Source of the DNA: Eledone cirrhosa | Taxonomy: Eukaryota | Reading direction: 5' to 3' | NCBI GenBank assembly: GCA_964016885.1 | Contig: OZ024740.1 | Span: forward strand, 11,470,001 to 11,534,000 | Length of the DNA: 64,000 bases | Shown: one piece after another, positions 7,804-58,741 of the stretch | Numbering within the stretch: the first letter of the stretch is position 1 | How the letters are laid out: each line of letters starts with the position of its first letter | Notes under the pieces: model-generated | Database searches by the model: none | What the model saw: only the letters and a program-made list of their open reading frames with translations | Told to the model about the DNA's origin: nothing | Position numbers and translations under genes: made by a program

Positions 7804-8265
7804 TATGTATATATATATGTATATATATATATATATATATATATGTATATATATATATATATATATATATATATATATATGTATGTATATATATATGTAT
7901 GTATATATGTATGTATATATATATGTATGTATATATGTATGTATATATATATGTATGTATATATATATGTATGTATATATATATGTATATATATATGTAT
8001 GTATATATGTATGTATATATATATGTATGTATATATATGTATGTATATATGTATGTATATATATATGTATGTATATATATATATGTATGTATATATATAT
8101 ATATATATGTATATATATATATATATATATATGTAGGAGGTGAGTTTTATTGTAGTACAATAAAGCAATGCAGATATCGGATAAGAAGCACTCTACAGTT
8201 TGTGGGACTGATATGTTGATTTAAAACTGCACTATCAACAAGTGTTTTTTTAGCCTTCATATCAT

Positions 8266-8351
8266 GTTCTCCTGTTTTATCTGATGAAAACACAAATATT
8301 ATTGTTTGATGATGTTTGTTTTTGAAATGCGCATAATAAAATATATGGAAC
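8266..8351 (+). ncRNA. Type I hammerhead ribozyme (minimal palindromic stem III)
   Basis: Stem I TGTTTTAT/ATAAAATA; core CTGATGA 8281-8287; ~16-bp stem II hairpin; GAAA 8324-8327; palindromic TGCGCA; predicted cleavage after AUA at 8335. Confidence 0.85.
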
Positions 8352-8377
8352 TCCTTTAACCATCTTTTGATCTTATA

Positions 8378-9757
8378 TTATATATATATATATATATATA
8401 TATATATATATATATATATATATATATATATATATGTATGTATATATATATATATATATATGTATGTATATATATATATATATATATATATATATGTATG
8501 TATGTATATATATATATATATATATGTATATGTATATATATATATATATATATATATGTATATGTATATATGTATATGTATATATATATATATGTATATA
8601 TATATATATGTATATGTATATATATATATATATATATATATGTATATATATATATGTATATATATATATATATATGTATATATATATATGTATATATATG
8701 TATATATATATATATATATGTATATATATATATATGTATATATATGTATATATGTATATATATATGTATATGTATATATGTATGTATATATATATATATA
8801 TATATATATGTATATATATATATGTATATATATATATATGTATATATATATATATATGTATATATATATATATGTATGTATATATATATATATATATATG
8901 TATATATATATATATATATATGTATATATGTATATATATGTATATATGTATATATATATATATATATATATATGTATATATATGTATATATATGTATATA
9001 TATATATATATGTATATATATATATATATGTATATATATATATATATGTATATATATATATATATATATGTATATATATGTATATATATATATATGTATA
9101 TATATGTATATATATGTATATATATGTATATATATGTATATATATGTATATATATATATATATATGTATATATATGTATATATATGTATATATGTATATA
9201 TGTATATATATATATGTATATATATGTATATATATGTATATATATATATATATATATGTATATGTATATATATGTATATATGTATATATTTATATATGTA
9301 TATATATGTATGTATATGTATATATATGTATATATATGTATATATATATATATATGTGTATATATATATGTATATATATATATATATGTGTATATATATA
9401 TGTATATATGTATATATATATATATATGTATATATATATATATATATGTATATATATGTATATATATATATATATATGTATATATATGTATATATATGTA
9501 TATATATGTATATATATGTATATATATGTATATATATATATATATGTATATATATATGTATATATATGTATATATATATATATATGTATATATATATATA
9601 TATATATATATGTATATATATATATATATATATATATGTATATATATGTATACGTATATATATATATGTATATATATATATATATGTATACGTATATATA
9701 TATATGTATATATATATATATATATGTATACGTATATATATATGTATATATATATAT
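8378..9757. repeat. Degenerate (TA)n/(TATG)n microsatellite array
   Basis: Near-pure purine-pyrimidine alternation, interrupted almost only by G on the + strand. Confidence 0.97.
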
Positions 9758-10093
9758 GGAGGCATATGGCTTAGTGGTTAGAGCATCGGCCTTGCAATCG
9801 AAAGGTTGTGAGTTCAATTCTCAGAGCGGGTGATGTGTTGTTTCCTTGAACAAGACACTTTATTTCACATTGCTCCAGTTTACTCAGCTGTAGAAATGAG
9901 ATGGTAGGGACTGGGGTCCCTATCATTCCACTGCAAAGTGGTCGTGGAGGTGCCACGGCAAAAAAGCACCCAGCACTCACTGTAAATGAGGTAGGTGTTA
10001 GGAAGGGCATCAAGCTGTAGAAATCAAGCCAGTATCAGTTCCCGTCCCACCCTTGCAAGCAGGGAAAAGCGGACGTAAAATGAAATGATGATA
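9758..10093 (+). mobile_element. tRNA-derived CORE-type SINE with RTE-derived tail, copy 1
   Basis: A-box-like TGGCTTAGTGG and B-box-like GAGTTCAATTC; CORE-like segment (CCTTGAACAAGACACTT...CAGTTTACTCAGCTGTAGAAATG); 3' end matches the RTE-C terminus; (TGA)n tail. Confidence 0.88.
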
Positions 10094-10096
10094 ATT

Positions 10097-12232
10097 ATAT
10101 ATATATATATATATATGTATATATGTATATATATATATGTATATATATATATGTATACATATATGTATATGTATATATAAATGTATATATATATATATAT
10201 ATATATAAATGTATATATATGTATATATATATATGTATATATATTTGTATATATAAATGTATATATATATATGTATATATATATGTATATATATATATGT
10301 ATATATATATATGTATATATATGTATATATATATATATGTATATATATATGTATGTATATATATGTATATATATATATGTGTATATATATATGTATATAT
10401 ATATATATGTATATATATATGTATGTATATATATGTATATATATATGTATATATATATGTATGTATATATATGTATGTATATGTATGTATATATATGTAT
10501 GTATATATATGTATGTATATATATGTATGTATATGTATGTATATATATGTGTGTATATATATGTATATATATGTGTATATATATGTATATGTGTATATAT
10601 ATGTATATGTGTATATATATATGTATATGTATATATGTATGTATATATATATATGCATATGTATATATATGTATATGTATATATATGTATGTATATGTAT
10701 ATATATGTATATCTATATATATATATGTATATATATCTATATGAATATGTATATATATATGTATGTATATATATATGTATATATATATATGTATATATAT
10801 ATGTATATATGTATATATATATAGATATGTATATATATATATGTGTATATATATATGTATATGTATATGTATATGTATATGTATATGTATATATATATGT
10901 ATATATGTATGTATATATATATATATATATGTATATATGTATGTATATATGTATATATGTATGTATATATGTATATGTATATATGTATGTATATATGTAT
11001 ATATGTATGTATATATGTATATATATATATGTATATATATATATATGTATATATATATATATATATGTATATGTATATATGTATATATATATATATATAT
11101 GTATATGTATATATGTATATATGTATATATATATGTATATATATATATATATGTATATGTATATATGTATATGTATATATATGTATATATATATATGTAT
11201 ATGTATATATATATATATATGTATATATATATATGTATATGTATATATATATATATATATATATATATATATATACATATGTGTATATATGTATATATAT
11301 GTATATGTATATATGTGTATATGTATATATATGTATATATATATATATGTATATATATATGTATATACGTATATATATATATATATATGTATATATGTAT
11401 ATATATATATGTATATACGTATATATATATATATATATGTATATATGTATATATATATGTGTATATATATATATATGTGTATATATATATATATATATAT
11501 GTATATGTATATATATGTATATGTATATATATATATGTATATATATATGTATATATATATGTATGTATATATATATATATGTATGTATATATATATATAT
11601 ATATATGTATATATATATATATATGTATATGTATATATATATATGTATATATATATATATGTATATATATATATGTATATATATATGTATATATATATGT
11701 ATGTATATGTATGTATATATATATATATGTATGTATATATATATATATGTATATATATGTATATATATATATATATGTATGTATATATATATATATGTAT
11801 GTATATATATATATATGTATGTATATATATATATATGTATGTATATGTATATGTATATGTATGTATATATATATATATGTATATATATGTATATATATAT
11901 ATATGTATATATATATGTATATATATATGTATATATATATGTATATATATGTATATATATATATATGTGTATATATATATATGTATATATATGTATATAT
12001 ATATATGTATATATATGTATATATATATATATATGTATATATATATATGTATATATATGTATATATATATATATATATGTATATATATGTATATATATAT
12101 ATATGTATATATATATGTATATATATATGTATATATATATATATATGTATATATATGTATATATATATATATATGTATATATATATATATGTATATATAT
12201 ATATATGTATATATATGTATATATATGTATAT
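10097..12232. repeat. Degenerate (TA)n/(TATG)n array
   Basis: Direct inspection. Confidence 0.97.
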
Positions 12233-56596: not shown

Positions 56597-56649
56597 TATA
56601 TATATATATATATGTTGAAAATTGCAAACTTGACTGTCACCACACATTA

Positions 56650-56688
56650 TGAACCTGAAGATTGCGAATGCATGAAAGTACTTGTTCA
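56650..56688 (+). ncRNA. Very compact type I hammerhead ribozyme (39 nt)
   Basis: TGAAC-CTGAAGA-T-TGC gaat GCA-T-GAAA-GTAC-TT-GTTCA. Confidence 0.82.
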
Positions 56689-56983
56689 ATTAACACTTAA
56701 CATTTAATATTCTATCATACTATTTCATTATAATACCATTATAAATTTTAAAGGATTGTAAATAAAACGATTAAATCAGACAAAGTTGAAATTCCTTTTA
56801 TTAATATAATCTTCTATACACAATCATACACACCCGTGGATATTTATCTATATATATATATATATATATATATATATATATATATGTATATATATATATA
56901 TATATATATATATATATGTATATATATATATATATATATATATATATATGTATATGTATATATATATGTATATGTATATATAT

Positions 56984-57709
56984 CGAAGCTTGCATGTTCC
57001 GCTGGATGTGTAATAGTAATATACGTGAACGACAAAGCATAAACGAACTAAGGAAAAAATTAGAAATAAGAGGGATCAGATGTTGTTTACTAGAGAGAAG
57101 GCTACGTTGGTATGGTCACGTGATGCGCATGAAGGACGATAGCTGTATAACAAAGTGCAGGGCAATAAAGATAGACGGTAGCCACGGAATAGGCAGACCC
57201 AGAAAAACCTGGGACGAGCTGATAAACTCCGACCTCACACACTTACACCTCACCAAGACAATGTCACTGGACCGAGACCTTTGGCGGTACTCAGTAATAG
57301 AGAAGACCCGCCTTACCTAAATACAAAGTAAAACCTACTACAGTCAGTAGGCATCTCTAACAAAATACACCCCCGTCCCACCACCCCGGTTCCATCCACA
57401 CCGCCCCCTTCTATGTAAAGTTATGTTGGTGCCACACCATCCAGGCCGAAACAAATGAGATCGTGTAGGTGTCACGACAAAAAAACACACAGTCCACGCT
57501 GTAATGTGGCCGTGTAGACAACACGGTAAAAACCTCCCAGACCCACACTGTAAATGTGGTTGGTGTTAGGAAGGGCATCCAACTGTAGAAAACCTGCCAG
57601 ACAGTCCTATGCGAGCAAGACAATCACACTTGCCTCAAGTGGGAAAACCCCCGTCCAAACCCATGCAAGCGTGGAACACGGACGTTAAACGTTGATGATG
57701 ATGATGATA
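56984..57709 (+). mobile_element. RTE-B 3' fragment (ORF end, 3' UTR, tail)
   Basis: [12 protein letters not shown]...EKTRLT*, then a single-copy UTR and (TGA)n. Confidence 0.93.
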
Positions 57710-57976
57710 TATGTATATATATATGTATATATATATATATATGTATATATATATATATGTATGTATATATATATGTATATATATATGTATATATATATAT
57801 ATATGTGTATATATATATATGTATGTATATATATATGTATATATATATGTATATATATATATATATGTGTATATATATATATATATGTGTATATATATAT
57901 ATATATATATATATATGTATATATATATATATATATATATATATATATATATATATATATATATATATATATATAC

Positions 57977-58741
57977 ATCACGATAAATTAACGGAGGCAT
58001 AGGCCGTCGTTATTCCCTGTAAATAATGTGCTCAAAGGGGAAGAGATCCTGAGCCCTTTAGAATATAATATGTTGAGAAGGTAACACACCAGAGAGAGAT
58101 ATATAGTACGTTATCAATAATACAGGGAAAAAACCACCTTTCCCTGTATTATTGATAACGCACTATATATCTCTCTCTGGTGTGTTACCTTCTCAACATA
58201 TTATATTCTAAAGGGCTCAGGATCTCTTCCCCTTTGAGCACATTATTTACAGGGAATAACGACGGCCTATGCCTCCGTTAATTTATCGTGATATTTCGCT
58301 CCTAACAACAGCCTTTCCTATCTCTGTTTGGTTGAGCACTCTTCTCTGAGTGGCTTTGTGCTGCCCTTTCTAGCAGTTCGTCTCTCAGAGGCCACTGGTT
58401 CACTGCCCTTAAACACGCTGTGACTTCTCTCTCCCACGTGTAGCTGGACAGTCAATTGTAAAATTCTCTTAGTGTTGTCTGAAATGTATAGCCTTACACA
58501 CGCTGATGAACCGAGACTAACATTTCTTTCAACAAATTTTCTGGCGAAACATATCTCTGGATGTGTATGTGTGTTATATAGTTATAGAGGTATTTATTTA
58601 CGCTTTAATTTATATTTTTAATTATCGTGTCTATAGTCTGCCTTTCATAGGTTATAGATTCCATACACTGGTGGTTTTTTCCCTGTATTATTGATAACGC
58701 ACTATATATCTCTCTCTGGTGTGTTACCTTCTCAACATATT
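57977..58741 (+). mobile_element. Penelope-like terminal repeat or retrozyme: ~539-bp unit, short direct-repeat tail and 5' inverted duplication
   Basis: 154-bp-arm palindrome 57977-58130/58139-58292; 58142-58202 repeated at 58681-58741; internal hammerhead. Confidence 0.75.
58487..58586 (+). ncRNA. Type I hammerhead ribozyme with extended stem I
   Basis: ACACACG/TGTGTGT plus TATAGC/GTTATA; CTGATGA 58503-58509; GAAA 58546-58549; stem III CATATC-TCTG-GATGTG; GUA site at 58567. Stem II is imperfect (A-C closing pair). Confidence 0.78.

Follow-up and report, generated by a model that had tools for sequence, protein, structure and literature searches.

What moves short, ribozyme-bearing pieces of DNA into (TA)n arrays, and what decides where each copy ends? 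A 64,000-nt stretch of the Eledone cirrhosa genome (contig OZ024740.1, forward-strand positions 11,470,001 to 11,534,000; hereafter the window) raises both questions. The window is AT-rich animal DNA in which (TA)n arrays alternate with islands. The long islands are mostly pieces of long interspersed nuclear elements (LINEs) with apurinic/apyrimidinic (AP) endonuclease and reverse transcriptase (RT) domains; eight others, A to H, are non-LINE islands, of which H is absent from an earlier interpretation of the letters alone (the sequence-only reading). We compared the window with the organism's own genome (3.0 Gb, 1,796 contigs), where the L-numbers used below designate fetched loci. Six islands almost certainly derive from Penelope-like elements (PLEs): A, B, D, E and H as 5'-truncated ends of Hydra-clade PLEs, and F from a Neptune-like PLE. 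C and G are tandem families devoid of an open reading frame (ORF). In the overall explanation that we consider likely, the Hydra enzyme would start reverse transcription at a UAU lying 3-9 nt before a bulged hairpin, and C and G would hitch-hike on it.

Penelope-like elements behind the islands

The eight islands are listed with our assignments; pLTR denotes a pseudo-long terminal repeat and UTR an untranslated region.

8135-8380, + strand: family A, 3' end (pLTR) of a Hydra-clade PLE, with an inverted tail piece (8135-8210) in front
24429-25202, + strand: family B, 5'-truncated 3' UTR and pLTR of a Hydra-clade PLE; the 5' side joins the interior of a LINE
31493-32822, + strand: family D, Hydra-clade PLE end with an inverted 5' copy (31493-31747), then forward 3' UTR, pLTR and tail
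40886-41727, - strand: family C, ORF-less tandem unit of 627 nt (627-629), 1.3 units in the window, with an internal deletion in the 5' partial unit
55836-56118, - strand: family E, pLTR and tail of a Hydra-clade PLE
56616-56846, + strand: family F, pLTR and 38-41-nt tail of a Neptune-like PLE
57977-58748, + strand: family G, ORF-less tandem unit of 539 nt, with a PLE-type inverted 5' piece (57977-58138)
59638-59799, + strand: family H, 3' end of another Hydra-clade PLE

The sequence-only reading had called the islands unique and unrelated. BLAST against the own genome, a check it had proposed, showed instead that each belongs to a multicopy, dispersed family (80 to 2,894 first-look candidates per family, which are not copy numbers). 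Their unrelatedness held at the level of DNA, as self-BLAST of the window matched no island to another or to a LINE. It failed for ancestry, since five of the islands are relatives within one PLE clade. Extension toward the 5' side, also suggested there, reached ORFs of the RT plus GIY-YIG type for A, B, D, E, F and H. The sequence-only reading was right to describe type I hammerheads of PLE or retrozyme type on retroelements that are 5'-truncated or non-autonomous and have (TA)n as their target.

Family D provides the most complete element: an intact 832-aa ORF flanked by its own pLTRs in a unit of 4,199 nt, with 55 of 56 scored protein matches in the own genome stop-free and 99-100% identical. 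The D protein carries the motifs RWR, DKT, YRDD, CxCX5C, CxxC and CxH. Related ORFs, in broken or truncated copies, are contiguous with A (L215, L333/L137), B (L219), E (L214) and H. RWR and DKT are present in E, RWK and DKT in H, and RWR in B; the N-terminus of A and the DKT of B were not recovered. The CxCX5C linker and the CxxC and CxH endonuclease motifs occur in D, A, B and E, CCHH is absent by eye, and the H C-terminus was not scored. Pfam found no RT or GIY-YIG family in four Hydra-type proteins, and the domains were read from motifs. A FastTree phylogeny of 21 rows (13 of 97 homologues) grouped A, B, D, E and H with unnamed homologues and set the F-type proteins apart; this set held no named Hydra reference, and it is by eye that the motif blocks of the five families match the published Hydra alignment. 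The anatomy is of Hydra type as well, with the hammerhead in the pLTR, insertion into (TA)n, partial tandems and inversions.

These features agree with the Hydra clade as described by Craig et al. (2021; PMC8557442), in which a single ORF joins RT to a C-terminal endonuclease with RWK/RWR, DKT, CxCX5C, CxxC and CxH, and in which the pLTR hammerhead, the (TA)n target, partial tandems and 5' inversions recur. Measured against that description, many families coexist here, and one is very young and has numerous intact ORFs. The D unit is longer than the size there given as "generally" below 3 kb, tails measure ~88-165 nt rather than 30-40, and cores of the U4C and U4A types occur.

Several observations bear on the abundance and variation of these families. 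With the D protein as query, a first look gave 111,169 candidates, and flanks hold at least seven further Hydra C-terminus types; the Hydra clade is thus very abundant and diverse in this genome. A metagenome scan with the same protein gave 114 pattern matches and no confirmed relative, and comparison of the D leader with four contig sets showed that sequence variants exist. At L320, L328 and L329, arrays of 93-bp inverted or direct units begin at the H hammerhead start and reach up to ~15 units between two H copies. In the window, the LINE copy at 22409-24428 is interrupted at 24428 by the family B 5' junction with no TA spacer; the 3' part of that LINE is missing, which suggests a target deletion upon insertion.

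Family F extends into a PLE ORF with DKG, YLDD, a CX4CxxC linker and a CCHH-type endonuclease. These motifs, the ~40-nt tail and the microsatellite targets resemble Neptune as described in PMC8557442, and we class F as Neptune-like by its motifs, which do not separate Neptune from Nematis. ORFs beside F copies at L101, L109 and L122 were considered as the gene of F itself and rejected as neighbours.

Fixed insertion ends and a bulged hairpin

Each family stops at one or two exact sites downstream of its hammerhead, beyond which a TA array begins. The ends below are numbered from the predicted cleavage site; because loci partly overlap, the counts are not independent.

A: +38-46 (25 of 51 occurrences) and +128-141 (23)
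B: +25-37 (19 of 32) and +112-113 (8)
C: a single end at +263
D: +41 (7 of 103) and +200-220 (30); 33 run on into the ORF
E: +47-48 (19 of 50) and +136 (27)
F: +119-120 (11 of 41) and +160-169 (29)
G: +178-182 and +266
H: +50-56 (13 of 22) and +160-165 (5)

Inverted 5' copies start at sites identical to these fixed 3' ends. In tandem context the sequence runs past them into the next unit or the ORF, and the ends are thus internal sites of the RNA.

Behind the ends lies a common motif. Directly downstream of UAU ends, at a distance of 3-9 nt, we found a hairpin that opens with RCUC and closes with GAGY; between them lie a helix whose length varies and, next to GAGY, a bulge of two bases (UU, UC or UA). 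The hairpin stands behind 12 of 12 ends with readable downstream sequence in A, B, C, D, E, G and H, in every case on the RNA sense strand and 3' of the end; the F tail lacks it. Over these 12 sites the outer pair is G-C in 6, A-U in 4, G-U in 1 and mismatched in 1 (the first site of H), and the first inner pair is C-G in 8, U-A in 2, A-U in 1 and G-C in 1. Inner helices span 6-59 nt, and the motif as a whole accepts G-U pairs. TAT itself is common in the seven leaders (77 clusters), and the 12 clusters that serve as main ends are all hairpin-linked. LINE sequence yields a background of 2 motifs in 63,678 nt. The window holds the following copies.

32662-32695, + strand: hairpin of D, first end
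41486-41507, - strand: hairpin of C, with one stem base mutated in the window copy and intact in L156
41401-41416, - strand: another hairpin-like motif of C, lacking a UAU at the typical spacing; 0 of 35 anchor matches end in front of it
55905-55924, - strand: hairpin of E, first end
58215-58239, + strand: hairpin of G, first end (inverted copy at 58030-58054)
58298-58337, + strand: hairpin of G, second end

The second hairpins of G and B end in identical letters. The start codon follows the second hairpin at 30-45 nt in B, D, E and H, and no start codon lies near the first hairpin.

A blind test was made on the fetched loci, scanning 2.3 Mb on both strands with clusters of the window families excluded. 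A sister copy ended in a TA array 1-10 nt upstream, mostly 4-5 nt, in 17 of 95 hairpin clusters, compared with 1 of 116 for a motif with swapped arms (Fisher p 6e-6) and 6 of 326 for RCTC alone (Fisher p 9e-8). The 17 clusters collapse to ~14 families, mostly without a linked ORF. Published Hydra consensi, inspected by eye, carry the motif in coral, sea cucumber and octopus: Hydra-2_Amil and Hydra-2_Ajap show it clearly, as does Hydra-1_Ajap, where it stands twice at the 5' start, and Hydra-1_Obim has it with a change to G-U. In a very common short family (L329:1100-1600, L292, L334; 23-28 loci, no ORF linked), the hairpin occurs together with a hammerhead 3' half, and a tandem form of ~144 bp exists.

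We regard the association of hairpin and end as a strong correlation within the sequences compared, and the hairpin as the likely determinant of the start site. Its presence at the ends of both Hydra PLEs and ORF-less tandem families may be new. The words hairpin, stem-loop and bulge have 0 occurrences in the main text of PMC8557442, a paper on octopus repeats is silent on ribozymes, and a literature search found no title or abstract describing the hairpin; older PLE papers and subscription papers fell outside that search, and novelty is not proven.

Hammerhead motifs and the ORF-less families C and G

The eight hammerhead motifs named in the sequence-only reading are all present in the sequence at the islands it gave.

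8273-8343, + strand: hammerhead A, canonical core from 8281, palindromic stem III, predicted cleavage after 8335
25128-25178, + strand: hammerhead B, U4A core (CAGAAGA) from 25133, predicted cleavage after 25173
31535-31581, - strand: hammerhead D, inverted copy, U4C core (CCGAAGA) from 31577
32569-32615, + strand: hammerhead D, U4C core (CCGAAGA) from 32573, palindromic stem III, predicted cleavage after 32611
41142-41222, - strand: hammerhead C, canonical core from 41216, 7-bp stem III (predicted monomer fold), predicted cleavage after 41148
55973-56038, - strand: hammerhead E, canonical core from 56030, palindromic stem III, predicted cleavage after 55981
56650-56688, + strand: hammerhead F, minimal, canonical core from 56655, palindromic stem III, predicted cleavage after 56683
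58496-58574, + strand: hammerhead G, canonical core from 58503, long stems I and III, predicted cleavage after 58567

They have the type I layout of three stems around CUGANGA, GAAA and UH with an open stem I, B and D deviating at U4. The four palindromic stem III inserts (TGCGCA, CAGCTG, TATGTA and GTAC) are as claimed, and the two D motifs sit in an inverted duplicate, 99.6% identical over 255 nt. In H the hammerhead is cut within the core; the 5' truncation that took away stem I and C3 had removed the start of the core, which is why the earlier reader missed it.

With a three-stem descriptor composed after the motifs had been seen, an exact core was found in 4 of the 8 non-LINE islands and in 0 of 300 dinucleotide-shuffled island sets. 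Allowing one core mismatch gave 6 of 8 islands (7 motifs), with 297 of the 300 shuffled sets matchless and 3 holding one match; 31,839 nt of LINE sequence gave 0 matches. The hammerheads are thus far above chance by the shuffled control that had been proposed. The descriptor misses G because of a bulge in its stem II, where the window copy also shows an A-C mismatch at a position paired as A-U in many other copies. The proposed search with Rfam hammerhead models came out differently, as no model detects the motifs in the ranges scanned: the window had no match at the gathering score, none of 71 matches at E<=10 in 55830-58760 was to a hammerhead model, and in a further search the best 150 of 879 matches were all to microRNA models on TA arrays.

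Cores are near-invariant across sister copies, with U4C in 39 of 39 D copies and U4A in 34 of 35 B copies; one B-like copy has the canonical U4. Within-family alignments, which show these invariant cores, gave no stem covariation, because the families are too young. Among the outcomes named in advance as speaking against the motifs, single-copy islands and shuffled controls matching at a similar rate did not occur, and the missing covariation did. At L014, L093, L090 and L171, Hydra-type ends accompany a U3-A8 core variant (TTGAGAA/TTGAAAA), a covariant described for schistosome PLEs (PMC4209133).

Among the seven families of the sequence-only reading, C and G are the only two that are non-autonomous in the loci seen. 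Neither has an ORF in 30 loci each, the longest stop-free stretches being 84-111 aa in C and 65 aa in G. Each unit has one hammerhead, arrays reach 3.4 (C) and more than 4 (G) units, and GC content is 33% and 40%, respectively. By tandem arrangement, type I hammerhead, lack of an ORF and GC below 45%, C and G resemble non-LTR (long terminal repeat) retrozymes, although their units of 627-629 and 539 nt fall outside the 150-450 bp of the definition in PMC7229834. Units are more alike within than between insertions (C, 136/7,575 = 1.8% vs 3.3%; G, 145/13,065 = 1.1% vs 1.9%), as expected for one template. In the L203 array, units 2 and 3 share four variants and units 1 and 4 share another set, and L159 is likewise mixed; a single monomeric circle as template for the long arrays is not supported by this mixed order. 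The one G locus in 30 that abuts a Hydra ORF, L207, was considered as an autonomous partner and rejected, since the join lies inside the linker and looks like an insertion. In C, 7 of 32 listed 5' junctions cluster at unit positions 561-578, an 18-nt stretch inside the hammerhead core/stem II, two of the rows being the same locus; this cluster is possibly an RT pause at the hammerhead fold.

Other repeats share the window. From 59925 to 64000 runs a tandem array with a period of ~635 bp, in at least 6 copies of 99.5-99.8% identity, which continues beyond the window; the three-stem descriptor found no hammerhead in it. Four copies of a ~345-bp piece, 95-98% alike, lie at 9748-10099, 13522-13850, 21188-21542 and 58973-59331. 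They share only ~100 nt at ~81% with LINE 3' ends, and are either a truncated second LINE family or a short interspersed nuclear element with a LINE-like tail. LINE ORFs at 26289-29378, 46983-50053 and 52411-53226 encode a PHD finger directly after the RT domain. Internal tandem repeats comprise a short-period array at 20275-21087 and direct repeats of ~380 and ~204 bp inside LINE regions (2510-3454, 25396-26010).

Proposed internal priming, its alternatives and its meaning

We propose that a pLTR-ORF-pLTR or tandem locus would be transcribed, that the RT-endonuclease protein would bind the hairpin, and that its endonuclease would nick a (TA)n array. The freed DNA end would pair with the UAU(A) next to the hairpin and prime cDNA internally, toward the 5' end and through an intact hammerhead. 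Lying 3' of the start, the hairpin would not be copied at that end, and two hairpins would give two start sites and hence a tail. A copy ending at the second site would retain the first hairpin, and only tandem or circular templates would regenerate both, which would account for tails and pLTRs. Early stops of synthesis, often with inversion, would leave short hammerhead-bearing islands. C and G, which have the signal and no gene, would be moved in trans, and we think it quite probable that Hydra enzymes do so.

A precedent comes from PAc, the Poseidon PLE of the green anole (Frangieh et al. 2024; PMC11167929). In vitro, the tail of this element is defined by two internal sites, both 3' of the hammerhead, at which its enzyme initiates, and RNA 3' of these start sites is required; hammerhead mutants without cleavage still insert, so cleavage is unnecessary in that assay. 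The two internal starts, here deduced from the ends, and the AT-rich targets are alike. PAc belongs to another clade, and its starts lie in an AC-rich stem-loop inside the ORF that is non-homologous to the target, whereas the sites proposed here are UAU before a conserved bulged hairpin, upstream of the ORF.

What the hammerhead contributes is a separate matter. That of C looks competent as a monomer, and if reverse transcription usually copied cut linear RNA, many 5' junctions would be expected at the cleavage site. The 5' junction lists of C, G and D show no such peak; in a hand count of the first 100 of 183 C matches, 4 of 27 places lie at the cleavage site vs 8 at a microhomology site 18 nt upstream. 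B and D, which have the U4 changes, are both very young families. U4C occurs naturally and is poorly active in vitro (PMC3088659); for U4A we found no source in the literature. The missing peak and the low activity of U4C suggest that cleavage is slow or optional, probably a side step dispensable for insertion. The template would most likely be RNA uncut at that hammerhead, either a tandem precursor or a re-ligated circle.

Several points weigh against this explanation. Binding, priming and cleavage are all deduced from sequence, and whereas we propose pairing with UAU, the Poseidon enzyme starts in vitro where the RNA has no homology to the cut DNA. We found no autonomous element with long stretches of sequence in common with C or G; what putatively links the two to Hydra enzymes is the motif, the ends, TA targeting and, in G only, inversions. 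The 12 hairpin sites are not independent, coming from five related families with paired sites per family, and 13 further sites were chosen with a pattern that requires the pairs. At the second ends of A and F the downstream sequence was not recovered and gives no reading. Short forms of the hairpin are weak, and the inner helix does not always form in RNAfold. In other families, 78 of the 95 hairpin clusters have no end in front, many being single copies or chance motifs; the descriptor finds a full hammerhead in only 2 of the 14 families with ends, and ~8 more show by eye a hammerhead 3' half, left by truncation in most, or a variant core. Hydra-1_Amil and Hydra-1_Crog offer only near or loose matches by eye.

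The most serious competitor, which we nevertheless hold to be unlikely, is a rolling circle, in which the hammerhead cuts transcripts to monomers, a host ligase circularises them and RT copies the circle repeatedly to give pLTRs and arrays, making cleavage obligatory. It could operate alongside hairpin-set priming. Every family retains hammerheads, C and G have stems long enough for a monomer fold, insertions of more than one unit with random 5' ends are common, and the likeness of C and G units within an insertion fits; circular retrozyme RNAs are known in other animals (PMC7229834), and a circular template also predicts no junction peak at the cleavage site. Yet the mixed-order variants of L203 and L159 would need added conversion or duplication, the youngest families have the U4C and U4A cores, with the lowered activity of U4C (PMC3088659), and cleavage-dead Poseidon mutants insert (PMC11167929). 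A reading of the motif on DNA or at another step, such as endonuclease recognition, a promoter or a translation signal, with the ends arising by nicking or resolution at the element's own TA-rich sites, strikes us as improbable. Craig et al. (2021) ascribe the tail to endonuclease-mediated resolution (PMC8557442), the second hairpin of B, D, E and H does stand close before the start codon, and the CTC/GAG core is kept in sequence and not in pairing alone. The motif is nonetheless strand-specific, tolerates G-U pairs and inner helices of 6-59 nt, and is retained in the ORF-less C and G, and the first hairpin is remote from start codons; moreover, the in vitro RT starts of Poseidon matched both tail ends (PMC11167929).

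For C and G alone, one might suppose satellites that arose from decayed PLE terminal repeats and were amplified locally by recombination rather than moved in trans, a route discussed in a preprint (10.64898/2026.07.22.740005). Head-to-tail arrays of up to ~4-5 units and mixed variant patterns agree with it. We rate it as very improbable: copies are dispersed over many contigs, their 3' ends stop exactly at one or two sites, in TA arrays, their 5' ends are scattered and G shows 5' inversions, all marks of new RT insertions. Mobilisation by the neighbouring LINEs, with their AP endonuclease and RT, which the sequence-only reading had entertained, is scarcely credible. LINE copies are abundant in the TA arrays, but islands and LINEs have no 3' sequence or tail in common, the inversions and partial tandems are of PLE type, hairpin and hammerhead descriptors stay at background in LINE sequence, and in six of the eight families the element's own PLE ORF is contiguous with the island, which contradicts the idea for these six.

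The elements are new members of known groups, as hammerhead-bearing, TA-targeting PLE ends and retrozymes are already known (Craig 2021; Cervera 2014, 2020). Like the metazoan PLE hammerheads of Cervera and de la Pena (2014; PMC4209133), they have short palindromic stem III inserts, predicted dimers and many divergent families per genome, mostly as single motifs from truncated PLEs, some on opposite strands 100-700 bp apart; unlike those, they include a full stem III in C and G, a ~90-nt stem II in H and U4 variants fixed in active families. C and G share ORF-less tandem units with a type I hammerhead each, low GC and coexistence with PLEs, the mobilisers proposed there, with the metazoan non-LTR retrozymes described in PMC7229834 and by Li, Clavereau and Pollet (2026; 10.64898/2026.07.22.740005). 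Their units of 539 and 627 nt exceed the 150-450 bp of the former and fall within the 51-972 bp of the latter. Unlike known retrozymes, C and G have an exact end geometry and a cis hairpin in common with one named PLE clade.

On balance we lean slightly toward a general model in which Hydra-clade RTs recognise a clade-wide hairpin that fixes the start of target-primed reverse transcription, the doubled signal makes the tail, the retrozymes here are parasites and the hammerhead is largely a passenger. The hairpin is a candidate answer both to how a Penelope-like enzyme picks an internal start and makes a tail and to which enzyme moves animal non-LTR retrozymes. It also offers a practical annotation marker for the ends of Hydra PLEs and their parasites, which Pfam and Rfam miss. 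A cis-signal conserved from coral to sea cucumber, together with a young family with intact ORFs, makes the model testable in an existing in vitro assay. If it is true, any RNA with a UAU and this hairpin would be written into (TA)n arrays.

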